This document shows, piece by piece, positions 54,104 through 64,000 of a stretch of DNA of 64,000 nt (position 1 is its first letter; each line of letters begins with the position of its first letter). Origin of the DNA: Coleofasciculus sp. B1-GNL1-01 (GTDB lineage Bacteria > Cyanobacteriota > Cyanobacteriia > Cyanobacteriales > Coleofasciculaceae); NCBI GenBank assembly GCA_040220235.1, contig JAVJTO010000063.1; one strand, written 5' to 3'. The notes beneath the pieces are model-generated. The model was not told where the DNA came from, did no database searches, and worked only from the letters and a program-made list of their open reading frames with translations. The translations under genes and the position numbers were made by a program.

Positions 54104-57100
54104 TTAACGGCGAGTTCTTGAGCCTTTAGCTTGACAAATATCACGAGATAGGGTAGTTCCCGGATGCGGACGTTCAAAAACGGGATGATTTTCGAGGCGA
54201 TCGCACGCCACCCGCAGCCCAGTTTGCCAATCTTGCGGTTCTGGTAAAATCCGCACATCCCACAAGCGTACTGTTTTATCCTGGCTACCACTGGCAAGTC
54301 TCTCACCATCCGGACTAAACGCCAACGATCGCACCGCACCTTGATGTCCCCGTAACGGTTTACCCCGTAACTGACCCTGAGAATTCCATAAGCGAATTGT
54401 ACCATTCCCACTACCACTGGCGATCGTTTTCCCATCCGGACTAAACGCCACCGCAAAAACGACTCCCTGATGTCCTCGCCAAGGTTCACCGATCAACTCA
54501 CCTTGACGATTCCATAAGCGTACTGTCCCATCTCGTCCCCCACTGACAATCCTCTCACCATTGGGACTAAACGCCAGGTCAAAAACCACACCCTCATGTC
54601 CCCGAAACGGTTGACCCAAGGGTTGACCCTGACGATTCCATACGCGAATTGTACCATCCCCACTACCACTAGCAATGGTTTCTCCATCCGGACTAAACGC
54701 CACTGTAAAAACGACTCCCTGATGTCCCATGAACGGTTGACTGATGGGATTACCTTGGCGATTCCACACCTGAACGGTTCCATCTTTACCGCCACTAACC
54801 AGAAATTGACCGTCTGGACTCCAAGCTATTGAGGTGATCCAATCTTGTCCAAAAAACGGCTGACCCAGAGGTTGACCTGGAACCGTCCACAAGCGAATTT
54901 TACCATCCTGGCTACTACTAGCAATCACCTGTCCCTGGGGACTAAAAGCGACTCCTGTCACCTCATCTTTATGTCCGGGTAAGGATTGACGAATTAAATT
55001 ATCCTGTCGCGTCCACAGATGAACTAAACCATCCTCCGTTCCACTGACCAAGATTTGATTATCAGGATGAAAAGCGACCGCATTAACCGCTGATTCGTGG
55101 TCTAAGCGATCGCGTTCTCTAGCTACCTCAATTGCCTGCCAAAGACTAGACGCAATCCGCTGATCGACGTGCTGAAATTTAGCATAACTTTGACCCGTTG
55201 TTTCAATTGCTAGTAATAATCCCTTAATTGGTTCCACCGGGAGCAAATTTTGGACAGTAGCGGCATTTTTATACAAGTGTTCCCGTTGAGCCATCTGTGC
55301 CGTTTTATACCATCGGCTCATTCCCATCCCTGTGGTCAGACTCAATAGCGCGATCGCGAAAATTAATCCTCCCCCAGCCAATCCCCGTCGCCTTCGTTTG
55401 TGCTGGAGACTCTGCTGAATTAGGTCTTGTCCTAATGTAGATAAATGGAGATGATCTCGATAATACTCTGCCTCAGTTAGGGTTAAGTCCGATAAAATTC
55501 GGTTCGGTTTTCCTTGAGTTTGCCACTCAATCGCCGCCGCTTCAATTTGGCGCTGGAGTCTCATCCCGTGGCGTTTTTCTTCGACCCATTGCTGGAGTTT
55601 TGACCAATGCTGAATTAGGGCTTCGTGAGCAATCGTTACCAAGGTTTGGTTCCATTTTCCGGAGTGAGTAACGATTAAGCCAGCATCGATTAATTTTTGC
55701 ATTACGGCTGTTACCGCTTTCGTGGAATGGCGATCGCCAATGAAATTGTTTACCGCATTTGTTGGTGAAGAAGTGTTGAGTGTTGACCCTTCACGACCTT
55801 CGAGGGCATAGTTTTGATTGTGTAGGAACGGGTTTAGTAACTTTCGTTTCGCTATTGATAGTAACGTCGGTGCAAAACCAACCCTAACTGAGGGTTGAGT
55901 GTTGCCCCTTCGCGACTTTCGAGGGGATGGTTTTGAGTTAACGACTGAACTGTGTCCCGCTGTGCTAACCTTTTCCTCTTGTTTCCCTGATTCTGTGTTC
56001 CCAGACCTAGTAGGAGACGTGCCATGGCACGTCTCTACAGATTTGAATCGGTTTCTAGATTTTACTTGAAAACTCAGGATCAACTCAGACGGGTCTACTT
56101 GTCGCGCCGTAACTTGACCGTTTTCATTTAATTGGATTAACGCAAAAAAAATGCCTTTGGCAATTTGTTTCTCATTAGCCGACAACGATTGATAAACGCG
56201 GTTGGCGTGTTTTTCGATCGCTCCTTGCAGCTTACCCCAACGATAATATTCGGCTACCATTAACCGATCCACTGGACGTCGTTGCCACAGTTGAGTTAAC
56301 ATAAACTGGAGTAACGGCAAACTGGCAGCATCCTCTACATCTAAGAGTAGTTGAGTAACTAAATCTGACTCAATCTCTACACCCACTTGCTGGGCGGGTT
56401 TAATAATAGCGGTTTTCAATCCTTCCCTGGTCATTGGCGTTACTGTCACCATCAGCGCCTGAATCTTTTGTACCAATTCTGGATAATTTGCACAATGACT
56501 TAAAAAATCCGTTCGCATCCCGATAACCAGACAAAGTTGATTATTGGTACGTTCTAGTCCACCCAACAAACAATCAAAAAACTGTTGTCGTTCGGTTTCA
56601 TCCTGACAACAAGTAAACACCTGTTCAAATTGATCGACTACCAGCACTAACCGCTGCTCTTCAGCCATTGTCCGCACCACAATTCCTAATCCTACCGCCC
56701 CCATTTGGAGCAGTTTCATGGTTTGGGCAAACTGATAGTCGCGTTCTGGGTTATGGGGATTGATAAAGGATCGGGCTAAATTCTGGAGAGGATGTTCACC
56801 GGGTTGAAAAATTAAAGTTAGCCATTCCTGAGTTCCTGATAAGCGTTGACCCCGTTGAAGTTGATGCAAAAGTCCGGCGCGAATTAGCGAAGATTTGCCA
56901 CTACCACAGGTTCCAATTACCGCCAAAAAATTGTTGGTGCGGATATGTTCGAGGAGTTCATCTGTTAACGTCTCTCGCCCATAAAAATACTGGGGGTCTT
57001 CATTTTTGTAGTCAAAATAGGCTAAACCTTTATAAGGACAAAATCGTTCAGGTGCGCTGGGGGGTAAAGCGGGTAATGATTCTGGATTAGTTTCACGGTT

Positions 57101-57853
57101 ACGGATTAACAAAATCGGATTTCCGGCGTTAGCAAAAATTAGGGGTGGGGACAATTGATGAATCAAATCGGTCAGGGTATAGTTCGTCACCCAGCCAGGG
57201 AGATGGTTTCTGGAATCGAGTCCTAATAATAGAATGGACGCCAACTGACTATATTTATCCGATTCAGTCGGATTCAGTTGTCGTGTTTGCAGGTTATCCT
57301 TGTCTCCCCATTTTCCCCTCTCCCCATCCCTTTGTGACTGACAGGTGGCGATAAAACAACGACTGTATCCCTGACCCCGATATCCCGGATCAGCTTGGGT
57401 GAGGTCAACTCCTTCATCGTTACAATAGCAATCTAACCAAATAATTTGCTCTCGAACTGGACTTTGTTGCAACAAATCACGCAGCCATGACAGAGATAAT
57501 CCCCAGTTACCGCGATTAGGGTTAATATCGCTGGTGGCTAAAAAACTGGTTGGTCTATCTTGGTGTTTGCAGAGTCCATAGCCAGAGAAATACAGCAGAA
57601 CCGTATCGGGAATTGTGTTTCCTTCTGGTAACAAGAGTTGGACGAGTGCGGCTTCAAGTTGAGTCAGGGTAACTCGAATCGGGGTGGTTGAATCAACAGG
57701 AGTGTTAAAAGCCGGAATCCGCCTGACTTGGACATTACCACGATCAATCAGGAGTTGCGCGATCGCCTCAGCATCTTTTGCTGGTGATGTCAAGTTTTTC
57801 AGGTGCTGAGTATCGTAAGTATTAATCCCAACGATCAAAGCCTGTCGATTCAT
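54104..57853 (-). CDS. Caspase-like (C14, degenerate) + STAND/nSTAND1-like NTPase + TM + WD40 repeats
   Basis: ALIVGINTY...AKDAEAIA, YFSGYG, WLDCYC; CPYKGL..F..ED...FYGRE; GTCGSGKSS; LVVDQFEQ; LPLLQF.L..LW; IAHEALI..W; about 7 GH..V.AVAFSPDG..WN repeats. Confidence 0.9.
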   Translation of the reverse strand: MNRQALIVGINTYDTQHLKNLTSPAKDAEAIAQLLIDRGNVQVRRIPAFNTPVDSTTPIRVTLTQLEAALVQLLLPEGNTIPDTVLLYFSGYGLCKHQDRPTSFLATSDINPNRGNWGLSLSWLRDLLQQSPVREQIIWLDCYCNDEGVDLTQADPGYRGQGYSRCFIATCQSQRDGERGKWGDKDNLQTRQLNPTESDKYSQLASILLLGLDSRNHLPGWVTNYTLTDLIHQLSPPLIFANAGNPILLIRNRETNPESLPALPPSAPERFCPYKGLAYFDYKNEDPQYFYGRETLTDELLEHIRTNNFLAVIGTCGSGKSSLIRAGLLHQLQRGQRLSGTQEWLTLIFQPGEHPLQNLARSFINPHNPERDYQFAQTMKLLQMGAVGLGIVVRTMAEEQRLVLVVDQFEQVFTCCQDETERQQFFDCLLGGLERTNNQLCLVIGMRTDFLSHCANYPELVQKIQALMVTVTPMTREGLKTAIIKPAQQVGVEIESDLVTQLLLDVEDAASLPLLQFMLTQLWQRRPVDRLMVAEYYRWGKLQGAIEKHANRVYQSLSANEKQIAKGIFFALIQLNENGQVTARQVDPSELILSFQVKSRNRFKSVETCHGTSPTRSGNTESGKQEEKVSTAGHSSVVNSKPSPRKSRRGNTQPSVRVGFAPTLLSIAKRKLLNPFLHNQNYALEGREGSTLNTSSPTNAVNNFIGDRHSTKAVTAVMQKLIDAGLIVTHSGKWNQTLVTIAHEALIQHWSKLQQWVEEKRHGMRLQRQIEAAAIEWQTQGKPNRILSDLTLTEAEYYRDHLHLSTLGQDLIQQSLQHKRRRRGLAGGGLIFAIALLSLTTGMGMSRWYKTAQMAQREHLYKNAATVQNLLPVEPIKGLLLAIETTGQSYAKFQHVDQRIASSLWQAIEVARERDRLDHESAVNAVAFHPDNQILVSGTEDGLVHLWTRQDNLIRQSLPGHKDEVTGVAFSPQGQVIASSSQDGKIRLWTVPGQPLGQPFFGQDWITSIAWSPDGQFLVSGGKDGTVQVWNRQGNPISQPFMGHQGVVFTVAFSPDGETIASGSGDGTIRVWNRQGQPLGQPFRGHEGVVFDLAFSPNGERIVSGGRDGTVRLWNRQGELIGEPWRGHQGVVFAVAFSPDGKTIASGSGNGTIRLWNSQGQLRGKPLRGHQGAVRSLAFSPDGERLASGSQDKTVRLWDVRILPEPQDWQTGLRVACDRLENHPVFERPHPGTTLSRDICQAKGSRTRR

Positions 57854-59194: not shown

Positions 59195-59863
59195 AACACC
59201 GTTGGTCTTCCTGTAGGGGCAACCCGCTTGCATTCATTCACAACGCCAGTCCGGATAATTGGCTTGGGTCGCCCTTGGCTTAATTAAGTTTCATTACGGT
59301 AACTTCTGGGTGATAAATCAGGCTCATCAACTGCTTCATCCTACGCCAGGACTGGTTTTCAGAGAAAACTTTAACCGGACGCGATCGCACGATTTGATGT
59401 TCAATATCACAATTATCCTGTGACGGAAATCTCTGGATCATTACGGGCGTCATCGCTTAGGATGCAATAGTTCATCTCAAACCTATCGTGGTTTAAAGGA
59501 AGGGGCATTATGAACACCTCTTGGATTCGCACCGCAACCATTACCGTCATTGATGTGGCTTTGCTTTGCACCGCCCCTCTATTAATTCAACTCTTTTCCC
59601 ACTTGCCATAACTGGATTGACCGTTTCTCTGGGCGCTTGTGTAGATATTTTGCTTAGTCTCTAAGTAGGTGGACACAATTAAAGTGAACGGTTGAGATTA
59701 GGGAACAGGGAACAGGGAACAGGGAATAGGCAATAGGCAATAGGGTAATGGGCTATAGAAATTTTGTCTCCCATCTTCCCCAGCTTCCCCATCTTCCCTA
59801 TCTCCCCATCACCCCATCACCCCCTCACCCCCTCACCACAAAACGTTATTCAGTAAACCCTAC

Positions 59864-61495
59864 CTACATCGCCACCTTTGAGTTCAGCAACGGATAGCGC
59901 AGAATTAGCGTGTCAGAGGCAAGCTCATGCTCCTGGATAAACTGAGTCACCTCTGTCTCCAGATCGGGTTGCGCCACCGCCACAAAACGCTGCACCATTG
60001 AGGCAACCGCGCAAACGACAATCAGATGAACTAATTCCTCGGCTGAATAAAGCTCTACTGCCGATTGCACAAACCGCCGAGGCGTTGTTAGTGGCGTCTG
60101 TGCTGAAATCCAGGCGAGTTGCAACGCTGCTTGCTCCCGCTGATCAAATAAGTCTGGGCGAGTTTCCTGCCCTGTGGCTACGGCAAAACAATGGCGAATT
60201 CGCTCCACTGATTGGGCTTTGTTTGTTGTCTGATGGTGAGCCATAAAGCCTTCAATGGCGGCTAGATAAGCATGATCTTTGGCAATAGCAGATACCCTTG
60301 CCATGAGGTGCTTGAGTTCTGCACTCAGGAGCGTATGATCGCGATCGCCCATTAACTCCCCATACAAATAGGCATGGCGTTTTCGTAGGGGTTGGGGCCA
60401 ACGTTGCATCCAATTGGGAAACACCCCAAATTCACGCTCAGTATAGGCGGTCAAATCCTCAATTTCCCCATCGTATTTAGCGAGCATCTGCTCGATTGAG
60501 GGTCCTCCGCTGGGTAGCTGATAATCCAGATTAGAAGGGTTTGCCAACTGAGCGGTGTGTCGCCCTGCCTCAATACCGCTTTGAGTGCTAGCCTGCTCTG
60601 CCCATTGCCCTTCTAGCTCTAGCCCTGTGAGATCATTGAAAACATTGAGAAACCCGAAGGCGGATACCATCATTTCTACACCTTCTATATAAGTCTGGGT
60701 GGTTTTCGGATCGCCTGCTAGGGTTTGGAGCTGGCTGATCTGAGAATCCGTGACTTGGTTGCGCGTCGCCTCGGCTGCCAGATCCGCGATCGCTAATTCT
60801 AATGATCCAAAGGGATTATTTTCAGTCTTTTCTCCATCCCGGGCTTGCTTAAATTGCTGTACAATTTTGAGCGAATTTTCACCGCCTGTTGCCGCACTAT
60901 GAACTTGGCAGTAAGAGCAACCGTGGGCATTGGATGTTGCATAACCAACCGAGAACATATTAATCGGTCCGAGTCCCTGTTTGCCGTAGCCTACAGCCGA
61001 AAAATTATGGCAATAGACAAACAGCTTGTAAGCTTGAGTCCAATGGTATAGATAAGCAAACGTATTGGGCCAAAAGCCAAAGAATTGCTTATAAAAGTGC
61101 AGAATTGGCCACGTTTCTGGATCATCGCTCCGAAAACCATCACTTTGAGGAATGACGTCACGCAGCACCCAATCTTCTGCCCCTTGGTGCAGGGTTTCAT
61201 CGGAAATTGAGTCCAAGGGCAGGGTGGAACCTGCGGCATTGAGCAGATCGTCTAGTTGTCCGCTAGCCTGTAAACGCTCTAAGTCCTCTGCACCGTTAAT
61301 ATGGTAGTCACCAATAAAAATTTGCGGCACGGTGGCGCTACCACTGAAGTAAACGGCGGCATCCGCATGGCGTGAGTTGGCTTTAATGTCGTACTCTTGA
61401 TAGTCATGAATGCCCCTTTGTTTCAGGACGGCTTTTGCCCTGGCGCAATAGTTGCAATTTGGCTTAGTGAATAGGGTAATTTGAGCATTGCTCAT
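59864..61495 (-). CDS. Glutaredoxin fused to two tandem AhpD/CMD-like domains
   Basis: FTKPNCNYC..AK, TVPQIFIGD..IING (Grx); FGFWPN...HGCSYCQVH (AhpD CxxC); second FGVFPN...LSAELKHL...FDQREQAAL...YSAEELVHL repeat without CxxC; GGAG RBS. Confidence 0.8.
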   Translation of the reverse strand: MSNAQITLFTKPNCNYCARAKAVLKQRGIHDYQEYDIKANSRHADAAVYFSGSATVPQIFIGDYHINGAEDLERLQASGQLDDLLNAAGSTLPLDSISDETLHQGAEDWVLRDVIPQSDGFRSDDPETWPILHFYKQFFGFWPNTFAYLYHWTQAYKLFVYCHNFSAVGYGKQGLGPINMFSVGYATSNAHGCSYCQVHSAATGGENSLKIVQQFKQARDGEKTENNPFGSLELAIADLAAEATRNQVTDSQISQLQTLAGDPKTTQTYIEGVEMMVSAFGFLNVFNDLTGLELEGQWAEQASTQSGIEAGRHTAQLANPSNLDYQLPSGGPSIEQMLAKYDGEIEDLTAYTEREFGVFPNWMQRWPQPLRKRHAYLYGELMGDRDHTLLSAELKHLMARVSAIAKDHAYLAAIEGFMAHHQTTNKAQSVERIRHCFAVATGQETRPDLFDQREQAALQLAWISAQTPLTTPRRFVQSAVELYSAEELVHLIVVCAVASMVQRFVAVAQPDLETEVTQFIQEHELASDTLILRYPLLNSKVAM

Positions 61496-61663: not shown

Positions 61664-63649
61664 TTACTGGATTTGGGGTCGCCGTAGCCAAGCTACGCCA
61701 GCAGTAATGCAGAACAGAACAATGGCGGGTACTGGGCTACCGCCAACCAGGAACAGATGGGTAAAGACGCCACCGAGCATAATGCAAGCCAGCAGCAAGC
61801 CACCTAAAAATGCCGTGCGTGGCAGCAAAATCAGCCCGGCACCGATCACTTCCAATACGCCCGTTAAGTAGCGGAACCATTGACCCCAACCAATGTCAGC
61901 AAATAGGGACACCATCTTTTCGACTCCTGCAAACTTTGAACCACCTGCCAGAAAGAAGGCGATCGCAGCGGCAATTTGTAATACCCAAACTAAAATTTGT
62001 TTCCATCGAGTCGGTTGGGTTGTGCTTGTGTCCTGATTTTGTTTCTCAGTCCTGAGATCGCTTTTTTCGATTGTCGTCGTTTTCCACTGCGGCAATTGCT
62101 GTTTAAAGGCATCAGCATTGAGAGTGGTAAGATCGCAGGCAACATAAGCATCTGGACGCACCAGAATCACGCGACCCGTTTGCGAACCAAGCTTCGTCTC
62201 GAAATCACCGCGATAATCAACCAGCATGTTGGCGTTAAAATCATGAAACTCTGGCAAACCGTTGTTGAGAATGACATGAGGCTTCAGCATCTCGTCAGCC
62301 TGTTCCACAATCTGGGCGATCGCCTCTCGTGCCTCTTGTGCTTGGTTGGGATCGATGAACAGGAGAAGCGTGTAGCCAGGAAAGCTTAGGAGTTCATAAA
62401 GGCGCACTCGTTCATTTTCAGCACTCATCAGTTCCATATCCGGTATCCGTGCGCCAGTCATTTCCCCGTTTCCCGACTCATAGCGAATGCCCAAGCCCGA
62501 CAGATTCAGGGCAAGGTTTCGCTGTATCGGCGGCAGGGGAATGAATATGCGAAACAGCGCTTTACGCAGATATCGCCACAAGGGTTGGCGCAACAGTAGA
62601 CTACGCAACAGAATATCGCTCGTCCATAACACACGCTTGCCAACTGTGTGCCGCTCCTGATTGTAGGTTTCTAGTAGTGCCTGCGGTGCTACGCCCTTGA
62701 CAAAGAACGCCAACTTCCAACCGAGATTAAAGGCATCTTGAATGCCCGTATTCATCCCCTGACCGCCAGCCGGACTGTGGGTATGGGTCGCGTCACCGCC
62801 GAGGAAGACACGACCAACATGATAACAAGAGGCAAGGCGCAACGAAGAACCCCAGCGCGTCAGCCATTTGGGTTCACTCAACTGCACAGGTTTTTCCAGA
62901 ATCGCGCTAATCGACTCTTGTAACTCTTCGAGCTTCAACTCTCGTGTTTTGCGATCGCTCTGATACTTACTATCAATGGTGACAATTCGGTGGGAACCGT
63001 CTTTAAAGGGGACGATAAAGGCAAGCCCGCGATCGTTGGAATGTTGCTCGGTTCCTCCTTCAGCAGCATGTCCGTCCAGGTGAACATCACCGAGAAAGGC
63101 AGTCCAGTCATAGGACGATCCTTCAAAGGGCAGATTAAGCGTTTTTCGCACGGTGCTATGCGCTCCATCCGCACCAACGAGGTAGTGGGTTTCAATTTCG
63201 ACGGTTCCTCCCTCGGCACATTCAACCGTACCGCGCACGCCATCCTCCGTTTCGGTAAAGTTGGTCAGTGTACGCCCACGCTCAATTTCCACACCCAGTT
63301 CATTCAGGCGGCGTTCCATAATCGCTTCTGTATCAGCTTGGGGCAGAATCAGGATATAGGGAAACCGCGTGTCCAGCCCGTACATATTGGCTCGCAGTGG
63401 AGTTTTGGCGTTGGCGCTGAAGTCAATGCCGGGTGAGGTATAGCCGCGACGAACCATCTCGTCAGCAACACCGAGAATATCCATGAACTCCAATGTGCGG
63501 GCATGAACGACCAGTGCCTTACTGCGCGTGGATGGCTCAGTGCGACGTTCAATGATTCGCACCCTGATGTTGCGTCGGGCAAGTTCAATGGCGACAGTCA
63601 TTCCCGTTGGACCAGCGCCTACAACTAGAACATCTATAGTTTGTGACAT
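61664..63649 (-). CDS. FAD-dependent monooxygenase (PheA/TfdB-like) fused to a C-terminal DoxX-like membrane domain
   Basis: VVGAGPTG, LVGADGAHSTVR, GDATHTHSPAGGQGMNTGIQDAFNLGWKL, ILVRPDAYV; then a 4-TM region FFLAGGSKF...WFRYLTGVLEVIGAGLILLP. Confidence 0.88.
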   Translation of the reverse strand: MSQTIDVLVVGAGPTGMTVAIELARRNIRVRIIERRTEPSTRSKALVVHARTLEFMDILGVADEMVRRGYTSPGIDFSANAKTPLRANMYGLDTRFPYILILPQADTEAIMERRLNELGVEIERGRTLTNFTETEDGVRGTVECAEGGTVEIETHYLVGADGAHSTVRKTLNLPFEGSSYDWTAFLGDVHLDGHAAEGGTEQHSNDRGLAFIVPFKDGSHRIVTIDSKYQSDRKTRELKLEELQESISAILEKPVQLSEPKWLTRWGSSLRLASCYHVGRVFLGGDATHTHSPAGGQGMNTGIQDAFNLGWKLAFFVKGVAPQALLETYNQERHTVGKRVLWTSDILLRSLLLRQPLWRYLRKALFRIFIPLPPIQRNLALNLSGLGIRYESGNGEMTGARIPDMELMSAENERVRLYELLSFPGYTLLLFIDPNQAQEAREAIAQIVEQADEMLKPHVILNNGLPEFHDFNANMLVDYRGDFETKLGSQTGRVILVRPDAYVACDLTTLNADAFKQQLPQWKTTTIEKSDLRTEKQNQDTSTTQPTRWKQILVWVLQIAAAIAFFLAGGSKFAGVEKMVSLFADIGWGQWFRYLTGVLEVIGAGLILLPRTAFLGGLLLACIMLGGVFTHLFLVGGSPVPAIVLFCITAGVAWLRRPQIQ

Positions 63650-63687: not shown

Positions 63688-64000
63688 TTAATTTTGTAGA
63701 GATAGAGTCCTTGGCTTTGATTGGTGTTCACGTCGATGTAGCAACAAATAAGCCGCCGGAGTGAAGTACAATGCTAGGATGGGTGAACCCCCGATCCCCC
63801 CCGCGATCGCAATGGCTAAGGGTTGCCAGAAGGAACCGCCACTAATCAGTAAGGGAATAAATCCAACCATTGTGGTAATTGTGGTCGTTAGGACGTGGCG
63901 CGTGGCTTTAATCACCACCTCTACAACCGCTTGGCGATCGCCCTGACTCGCCCGTTCATCTTCATTAAAGGCAGACAGCACGATAATCGCCCCATTAATC
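63688..64000 (-). CDS. RND efflux permease (AcrB/CzcA family), C-terminal end
   Basis: INGAIIVL...TRHVLTTTITTMVGFIPL..SGGSFWQPLAIAIAGG matches the TM10-TM12 pattern of RND pumps; the gene starts beyond the window. Confidence 0.85.
   Translation of the reverse strand, partial: INGAIIVLSAFNEDERASQGDRQAVVEVVIKATRHVLTTTITTMVGFIPLLISGGSFWQPLAIAIAGGIGGSPILALYFTPAAYLLLHRREHQSKPRTLSLQN

Follow-up and report, generated by a model that had tools for sequence, protein, structure and literature searches.

A glutaredoxin joined to an active and a dead Bmp8-like domain: a candidate self-recycling reductive dehalogenase of Coleofasciculus and other bacteria

What might a bacterium do with a glutaredoxin that is followed, in the same chain, by two AhpD-like domains of which only the first has an intact cysteine site? 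The question is raised by a gene for a 543-residue protein in the window, a 64,000-nucleotide stretch of contig JAVJTO010000063.1 from the cyanobacterium Coleofasciculus sp. B1-GNL1-01 (coordinates in Table 1). A first-pass annotation made from the letters alone had likened the layout to that of eukaryotic sestrins and proposed a self-recycling peroxidase or a redox sensor. Judging from structural models, the architecture of glutaredoxin, active AhpD-fold domain and dead AhpD-fold domain is real. We give an even chance to the reading that the protein is a Bmp8-type reductive dehalogenase, thiol-dependent and contained in a single chain, which would recycle its own reductant with glutathione and serve detoxification (or, in actinobacteria, trimming), with electron-rich halogenated aromatics such as halophenols, halopyrroles and halo-hydroxyphenazines as candidate substrates. 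The dehalogenase reading appears stronger than the peroxidase or sensor reading.

The AlphaFold2 model, built from 113 homologues, has a predicted local distance difference test (pLDDT) score of 96.0 and a predicted template modelling score of 0.95. A fold search against 48,161 representative chains ranks human sestrin 2 first, with both halves covered (Z 20.1, root-mean-square deviation (rmsd) 3.5 over 274 residues, 11% identity), followed by Bmp8, which covers half 1 at residues 109-307 (Z 14.5, rmsd 2.5, 183 residues). Bmp8 is thus the best single-domain chain for half 1, ahead of 2PRR (Z 12.6) and AhpD (1gu9, Z 7.7), while half 2 aligns with 6k40 (Z 11.6, residues 343-523), 2gmy (Z 10.5, residues 364-518) and AhpD 1gu9 (Z 7.7). 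The comparison with AhpD and sestrin 2 suggested by the first-pass annotation therefore bears out both the AhpD fold of the second half and the sestrin-like pairing of an active with a dead domain. Sequence profiles point to a different relative. With the glutaredoxin removed, the only match of the query in the PDB under E 0.001 is Bmp8, which is also the best PDB match of the half-1 profile (E 1.4e-9, with 2PRR behind at 1.2e-5) and of the half-2 profile (E 7.8e-9). The same two profiles retrieve no sestrin from the PDB at E<=10, and the sestrin family is not among the Pfam matches listed for the protein and its halves; membership in the sestrins was rejected for want of a sequence signal.

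The glutaredoxin is recognized by PF00462 over residues 6-66 (E 2.9e-17, 63 bits against a cut-off of 22.9), so that the dithiol glutaredoxin with CNYC and TVPQIF stands as first described, and all motifs lie where they had been placed. Among 121 aligned family sequences, on which all conservation counts are based, C14 is kept in 117, C17 in 116 and P57 in 119. A selenoprotein was considered and rejected, as the frame has no internal stop and the matches to Uxx-star hidden Markov models are cross-matches of the glutaredoxin fold far under cut-off. In Pfam and NCBIfam scans the glutaredoxin alone is recognized and neither half passes the AhpD/CMD cut-offs, and the halves are therefore assigned to AhpD by profile and fold searches. 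The query leaves CMD (PF02627) unmatched in the Pfam scans, the TIGR01926 score is 15.2 bits against a cut-off of 81.8, and the scores for TIGR00778, TIGR01926 and Pfam CMD are all far under the curated cut-offs. Half 1 carries FGFWPN (139-144), HGCSYCQVH (191-199) and FGSLELAIADLA (229-240); the corresponding motifs of half 2 are FGVFPN (356-361), KDHAYLAAI (406-414) and FDQREQAALQLA (450-461). The two halves had been called homologous; their sequence likeness is weak (hhalign probability 6%, E 0.006).

The site of half 1 is strictly conserved. C193, Y195, N284 and N287 are invariant in 121/121 sequences, and C196 and H199 are found in 120; the segment 60908-60919, previously assigned to HGCSYCQVH, corresponds exactly to C193-C196. 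C193 aligns with C82 of Bmp8, the cysteine mutated in 6OHJ (C82A, a tribromopyrrole complex). PMC4674687 gives the 2PRR site as C86/Y88/C89/H93/E74 and that of sestrin 2 as C125/Y127/L128/H132/H113, i.e. with the histidine at +7 from the first cysteine and a relay Glu or His, respectively, at -12. Compared with the residues listed there, the histidine of half 1 and of Bmp8 is at +6. At the -12 position (residue 181) Ser, Phe, Tyr, Met or Leu is found in 110 of the 121 family members, and Trp in Bmp8. Judged by alignment, the half-1 site is of the Bmp8 type (His at +6, GFxNxxN, no relay Glu) and not of the 2PRR/sestrin type, which weakens the earlier designation as a peroxidase, as does the proximity of two separate clades to halogen enzymes. 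PMC5577590 describes the debromination by Bmp8 as reductive, the proposed products being a cysteine disulfide and HBr. As the nearest relative of solved structure takes bromine off natural products of marine origin, the window protein may remove halogens from toxic aromatics.

By analogy with Bmp8, C193 would pull the halogen off the ring, a proton for the ring would come from H199 with the Asn pair, and C196 would close a C193-C196 disulfide with release of HX; the roles of the Bmp8 His and Asn, including a catalytic Asn on the last helix, are presumed here. C14/C17 of the glutaredoxin would then re-reduce the disulfide, either within the same chain or in a neighbouring one, and the gene context suggests that the glutaredoxin itself could be re-reduced with NADPH via glutathione and glutathione reductase, or directly by a co-encoded reductase.

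This context was surveyed at 72 GTDB loci from cyanobacteria, alpha- and gammaproteobacteria, Chloroflexota, Bacillota and actinobacteria, whose hosts, where named, are mostly marine or saline. We ran 19 neighbour proteins by tblastn against these loci and family scans of about 70 hand-picked open reading frames (ORFs). At 8/72 loci the fusion gene is followed, after 119-214 bp, by a glutathione-reductase-like gene, and at a ninth locus this neighbour comes upstream. Its score on the glutathione reductase model that fits it best is 419-439 bits, under the cut-off of 480, and as RclA or HOSCN reductase it scores far lower, at 215-233 bits. A higher-scoring glutathione reductase copy is present elsewhere in four of the five genomes checked, so that the neighbouring one, which is divergent in sequence, looks dedicated. 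At L056 the reductase query matched, with 34% over 140 residues, a different oxidoreductase, which was left out of the count.

Two groups of loci are linked to halogen chemistry. In three Actinomadura loci of the 72 the gene follows a flavin halogenase at 169-210 bp (PF04820 E 2.5e-42, WxWxIP), and none of the three genomes (7.9-9.8 Mb) has another flavin halogenase at E<=1e-15. Before the halogenase lie phzA/B-C-D-E-F-G-like genes, a Baeyer-Villiger-type monooxygenase, a VCPO-domain gene and a PhzS-like hydroxylase. The phz portion was examined in two of the three genomes. Among metagenome loci, 3/28 have a halogenase match upstream, two of them with a VCPO-like gene. The actinobacterial cluster may be an undescribed halophenazine pathway; a literature search for phenazine clusters with two halogenase types returned only LvcH, a phenazine haloperoxidase that is not colocated with phz. 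A transporter and a cation/H+ antiporter also belong to the cluster, which was seen at L057, L059, L061, L114, L115, L101 and L107. The second group comprises 4/72 loci from three Chloroflexota genomes, in which the fusion gene is preceded by a reductive-dehalogenase-like one (TIGR02486 E about 1e-21) that is closer to PceA (1.4e-22) than to QueG (4.2e-8). In a quick IQ-TREE maximum-likelihood search with 72 rows, the halogenase, reductive-dehalogenase-like and glutathione-reductase groups fall on separate, well-supported branches. Thus, the halogen link arose or was kept twice.

What, then, is the role of the second half? Its mean column identity is 55%, compared with 61% in half 1, and it has conserved residues of its own (H396 in 121/121, E415 in 120, R503 in 118, C495 in 115, and also Q502). 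C436 is kept in 109 sequences. The statement that half 2 lacks cysteine thus holds at the active-site position and fails elsewhere in the domain, and because C436 and C495 are conserved and column identity is near that of half 1, half 2 is not decaying. To map the contacts of the glutaredoxin, residues 1-89 and the core (100-537) were folded as separate chains. The docking score is 0.82 against 0.01 for the best control; the docking mark is reached by 116/157 solved pairs and 2/215 mismatched pairs. The runs agree in at least 98% of contacts, with a partner pLDDT of at least 87. A pass was to be expected, since glutaredoxin and core belong to one chain, and the informative part is the interface, which is predicted between glutaredoxin residues 42-55, 64-67 and 71-87 and the linker 102-106, the loop 463-475 and the tail 530-537, with R533 touching N67 and D71 of the glutaredoxin in the model. 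On the glutaredoxin side, helix 2 is remodelled into a conserved docking surface, and the GRX_bact score is 77.6, under the cut-off of 90. In the glutathione groove, where we take the GG kink, the helix-2 Arg and an Asp to be the functional elements, N67-G68 stands at the GG of E. coli-type Grx3 relatives; K11 and D71 are kept, N67 is found in 102/121 and A44 in 107/121 sequences. These models predict that half 2 stands in for the second AhpD-fold subunit and is a platform that clamps the glutaredoxin. The suggestion that the dead half is a pseudo-dimer partner is thereby supported, and extended by a surface predicted to dock the glutaredoxin. A decayed second half was rejected in view of its conservation and this surface.

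Several points weigh against a glutathione-recycled dehalogenase. Identity to Bmp8 is 14-19%, and CxYCxxH together with GFxNxxN is also found in uncharacterised single-domain proteins (L071, P0154, P0158, P0161), so that the motif alone is no proof of dehalogenation. The docked pieces come from one chain, and their pass reports packing, not electron transfer; the predicted interface names neither C14/C17 nor the catalytic residues of half 1, residues it does not name being uncertain and not excluded. In the groove, N67 and A44 replace residues that presumably bind glutathione, and D71 is in contact with R533. In three Bacillota members the CxxC of the glutaredoxin is lost but the core site is retained; Bacillota are mostly without glutathione. 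The halogen links are two inherited events and not seven, and 65/72 loci have no halogen gene among the neighbours screened. The reductive-dehalogenase-like neighbours reach 74-79 bits against a TIGR02486 cut-off of 160 and belong to genomes with 6 and 13 such matches (G044 and G045, where three matches are above the cut-off and many are short, at about 350 residues). The window genome contains no convincing flavin halogenase, its one match being weak, and gives no match to the reductive-dehalogenase-like query. It does carry an unlinked VCPO-like gene (G000:C45:16746-17993, 31% over 439 residues to the Actinomadura protein).

The earlier proposal that the glutaredoxin re-reduces the AhpD site in cis with glutathione is consequently divided. 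The reductase neighbour and the loss of the CxxC in Bacillota favour glutathione, while recycling in cis draws no support from the interface, which names no catalytic cysteine. Recycling by the glutaredoxin is shared by the dehalogenase reading and by the rival reductase readings discussed below (redox-cycling aromatics, hydroperoxides, hypohalites), and is likelier than any one claim about the substrate.

The first of these rivals arises from the commonest neighbours, which are genes that handle xenobiotics. An AcrB-type resistance-nodulation-division (RND) transporter lies within the fetched flank in 21/72 loci and a related flavin adenine dinucleotide (FAD)-dependent monooxygenase in 10; 19 loci have a divergent LysR gene no more than 350 bp away and 29 have TetR-like genes, the latter counted from ORF clusters, which suffer from shadow frames in GC-rich loci. 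Single cases of a Rieske oxygenase, LigB and a glutathione S-transferase-domain gene were also seen. Together with the phenazine genes of the actinobacterial cluster, this fits a glutathione-recycled thiol reductase that acts, alongside pump and monooxygenase, on non-halogenated redox-cycling or thiol-reactive aromatics such as phenazines and quinones; the combination of membrane-fusion protein, RND pump and DoxX presumably resembles the phenazine pump mexGHI. Every phenazine-linked locus found, however, also has a halogenase directly upstream, the reductive-dehalogenase-like neighbour in Chloroflexota is left unexplained, and we know of no such chemistry at a CxYCxxH site. We consider this explanation unlikely, if the best placed of the alternatives.

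A self-recycling alkyl-hydroperoxide reductase resembling AhpD or the Sesn-A domain, as favoured by the first-pass annotation, would agree with the AhpD fold, the CxYC and the His. The chain whose fold best matches the whole core, sestrin 2, is a reductase of cumene hydroperoxide that uses C125/Y127/H132 (PMC4674687). Of the half-1 sequences, 46/61 match TIGR01926 'peroxidase-related' weakly (best E 2.5e-5), fusions of glutaredoxin with peroxidases exist (1NM3), and a glutathione reductase neighbour would fit equally. Against this, the relay Glu is absent and the His spacing is that of Bmp8, and no recurrent catalase, peroxiredoxin or OxyR/PerR-type neighbour is seen among the clusters annotated. 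The distribution is also unlike that of a core antioxidant: the gene is intact in 1/41 genomes of its genus, family and order, namely in the window genome (G000), where it is present in one copy. The gene is accessory. G007 and G017 contain deletion remnants of the cassette, and a housekeeping role was rejected on these grounds; the nearest homologues and the gene content of the host genome are cyanobacterial. As the principal activity, hydroperoxide reduction ranks behind the first rival and is likewise improbable; slow turnover of hydroperoxides as a side reaction would be no surprise.

Still less probable in our estimate is an enzyme that reduces reactive halogen species (HOCl, HOBr, haloamines, sulfenyl halides), as RcsA of the AhpD family would. 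The AhpD-like RcsA is reported to degrade HOCl (PMC9751292). The VCPO-domain gene and the flavin halogenase of the actinobacteria belong to classes that generate oxidised halogen, the named hosts are for the most part marine or saline, and the attack of a Cys on positive halogen would be chemically close to the proposed dehalogenation. The RND pumps, aromatic monooxygenases and reductive-dehalogenase-like gene nevertheless point to organic substrates, and the neighbouring reductase scores best as a glutathione reductase. A sensor after the manner of sestrins, with the dead half binding a ligand or partner in order to signal, could draw on the conserved polar set of half 2 (H396, E415, R503) and on the persistence of second gene copies with a dead or damaged half 1 and a recognisable half 2 (L015:6208, L021:3788, L049:15253), but is very improbable given that glutaredoxin docking accounts for part of the conserved surface of half 2, that separate, dedicated TetR or LysR regulators flank the gene with no signalling partner among the neighbours annotated, and that neither half gives a sestrin sequence match at E<=10.

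Table 1. Features of the 543-residue protein gene and its neighbours in the window
Feature	Position	Strand	Basis or remark
Gene for the 543-residue protein	59864..61495	-	glutaredoxin-(Bmp8-like active)-(Bmp8-like dead); ORF call, AlphaFold2 model
Glutaredoxin domain, residues 1-87	61235..61495	-	Pfam PF00462, PDB glutaredoxin matches, conservation
Glutaredoxin C14-N-Y-C17	61445-61456	-	dithiol motif
Glutaredoxin TVP loop	61325-61333	-	within T55-V-P-Q-I-F
Half 1, residues 109-307, Bmp8-like AhpD-fold domain with intact site	60575..61171	-	profile and fold match to Bmp8
C193-S-Y195-C196-Q-V-H199	60899..60919	-	aligned with Bmp8 CMYCKSH; conservation
N284-V-F-N287 of GFLNVFND	60635..60646	-	aligned with Bmp8 GFLNRWN; conservation
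Half 2, residues 343-515, Bmp8-like fold, Cys pair replaced by H408/L411	59951..60469	-	profile, fold, conservation
Half-2 loop 463-475, conserved, main predicted glutaredoxin docking site	60071..60109	-	interface list, conservation
C-terminal tail 530-537 (R533, Y534), predicted glutaredoxin clamp	59885..59908	-	interface list; R533 118/121
FAD-dependent aromatic monooxygenase (rifampin/polyketide-oxygenase type) with DoxX-like membrane domain	61664..63649	-	upstream, co-oriented
AcrB-type RND transporter, 3' end	63688..64000	-	gene runs past the window

In the window genome the gene is the last of a cassette comprising a divergent TetR gene, an HlyD protein, AcrB and the FAD monooxygenase-DoxX protein; the HlyD membrane-fusion protein and the divergent TetR precede AcrB outside the window (G000:C63:127688-133396). 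In this cyanobacterial cassette, monooxygenase and pump would handle the same compounds as the proposed dehalogenase under TetR control. The DoxX-like domain of the monooxygenase is C-terminal, and a close homologue at L007 (550 residues) is about 110 residues shorter. A promoter scan was uninformative (5 sites against 3.2+-1.7 expected) and found no terminator, and the guanine-plus-cytosine profile of the window gives no clear island signal. Downstream of the gene, at 59690-59840, lie intergenic short tandem repeats of 7-mer and 9-mer types, which are common in filamentous cyanobacteria. By eye, a 1249-residue protein with a caspase-like domain, an NTPase and WD40 repeats is encoded at 54104-57853 of the window, and a 1134-residue PcrA/UvrD helicase outside it (G000:C63:133704-137108, i.e. 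L073:13705-17109) contains an apparent intein, from block CFPPG to VHN.

Other loci have recurrent neighbours of their own. A hydrophobic protein of about 157 residues, with no Pfam or NCBIfam match at the thresholds used, is encoded directly downstream in 10/72 loci (L003:9726-10196, L017, L020, L030, L041, L047, L052, L053, L066, L067) and is joined to a frameshifted copy in P0129. A Trp/Cys/Tyr-rich protein of 110 residues without a family match sits just after the RND gene or beside the fusion gene at L001:7606-7938 and seven other cyanobacterial loci. L032 and L058, from Aurantimonas and Sphingomonas assemblies, hold near-identical cassettes of LysR, the fusion gene and the reductase that adjoin conjugation-like ORFs (by eye), which suggests a mobile element or a binning error. 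Second copies occur near an intact gene at L015:6208-7917, L021:3788-5440, L049:15253-16974 and L048:3656-5377. In L015 and L049 the Cys pair of half 1 is gone and in L021 C196 is replaced by Gly, with glutaredoxin and half 2 still recognisable; in L048 two intact copies flank the reductase gene.

From 8000 candidates the protein search retrieved 224 matches at E<=0.001. Of the 120 listed, most are near full length, with 48-96% identity, and those with names are mostly 'glutaredoxin domain-containing'. A half-1 search of 50% representatives gave 49 matches, including distant glutaredoxin fusions at 26-34% identity; the ESM Atlas returned unnamed or CMD-type clusters only, and a plasmid collection gave no match at E<=1e-20. 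The literature search, which reached few subscription journals and for 'Bmp8' mostly yields the BMP8 growth factor, found no description of a protein with this glutaredoxin-AhpD-AhpD layout. Tandem active and dead Bmp8-like pairs without an N-terminal glutaredoxin are present in P0160 (in a cluster named Byssovorax), P0162, P0165 (Enhygromyxa) and P0151, the last of which may be a fragment; in architecture these pairs are nearer to sestrin than the window protein is. The sole longer form found, of 1616 residues (L013:4773-9623, P0174), joins an AcrB-type transporter in frame to the whole fusion; its cluster holds four sequences on three contigs from three sources, and it may have originated by stop-codon loss and read-through or by assembly error.

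How does the protein compare with known systems? It would work most like Bmp8 and is laid out like a sestrin, and by their defining features it is neither of these nor an AhpD. Bmp8 (6OHI/6OHJ) is the best solved sequence relative of both halves, with the same CxYCxxH and GFLNxxN and no relay Glu; as with Bmp8 and its Bmp2, some members of the window family lie next to a flavin halogenase within a biosynthetic cluster. Bmp8 differs in being a tetrabromopyrrole debrominase of one domain of about 190 residues with no fused reductant, whereas the window family has a tandem active and dead pair plus glutaredoxin, mostly in efflux/regulator cassettes. Sestrin 2 (5CUF/5DJ4) shares the two AhpD-fold domains with pseudo-two-fold symmetry and an N-terminal redox site only (Z 20.1-20.4 over 270-276 residues), but has a single Cys (C125, with L128 where the window family has C196), His at +7, no glutaredoxin and a GATOR2-binding C-domain. 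Since both halves are closer to Bmp8 than to sestrin, independent duplication is the likelier origin. AhpD, 2PRR-type proteins and RcsA are alike in fold, in the CxxC at a helix-turn-helix and in a nearby His; AhpD and 2PRR-type proteins differ in His spacing and relay Glu. AhpD/2PRR-type proteins and RcsA use separate reductants. Grx3/GrxC and the hybrid peroxiredoxin-glutaredoxin 1NM3 share the dithiol glutaredoxin with its TVP cis-Pro loop, and in 1NM3 the glutaredoxin is also fused to a thiol enzyme, which is a peroxiredoxin and not, as here, of the AhpD fold.

To our knowledge Bmp8 is the only thiol-dependent bacterial aromatic dehalogenase, and it acts within a biosynthetic pathway. In its widest form, to which we give somewhat less than an even chance, our reading is that of a widespread family of reductive dehalogenases, as yet unannotated, which would use neither metal nor flavin and would recycle themselves. 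In these a Bmp8-type pair would have been fused, one of its sites turned into a glutaredoxin docking platform and the whole wired to glutathione and a dedicated reductase; they would serve organohalogen defence in marine cyanobacteria and proteobacteria and halogen editing in an undescribed actinobacterial halophenazine pathway, with the sestrin architecture reached independently. If this is true, oxygen-tolerant, cobalamin-free halogen removal would take part in the marine organohalogen cycle in several phyla and inside efflux cassettes, and would provide a biocatalyst easily driven by glutathione and NADPH. Whatever the substrate, the family offers a bacterial case of the active and dead AhpD layout of sestrins, whose physiological reductant PMC4674687 lists as unknown, and may be useful for understanding the origin of this layout and its reductants.

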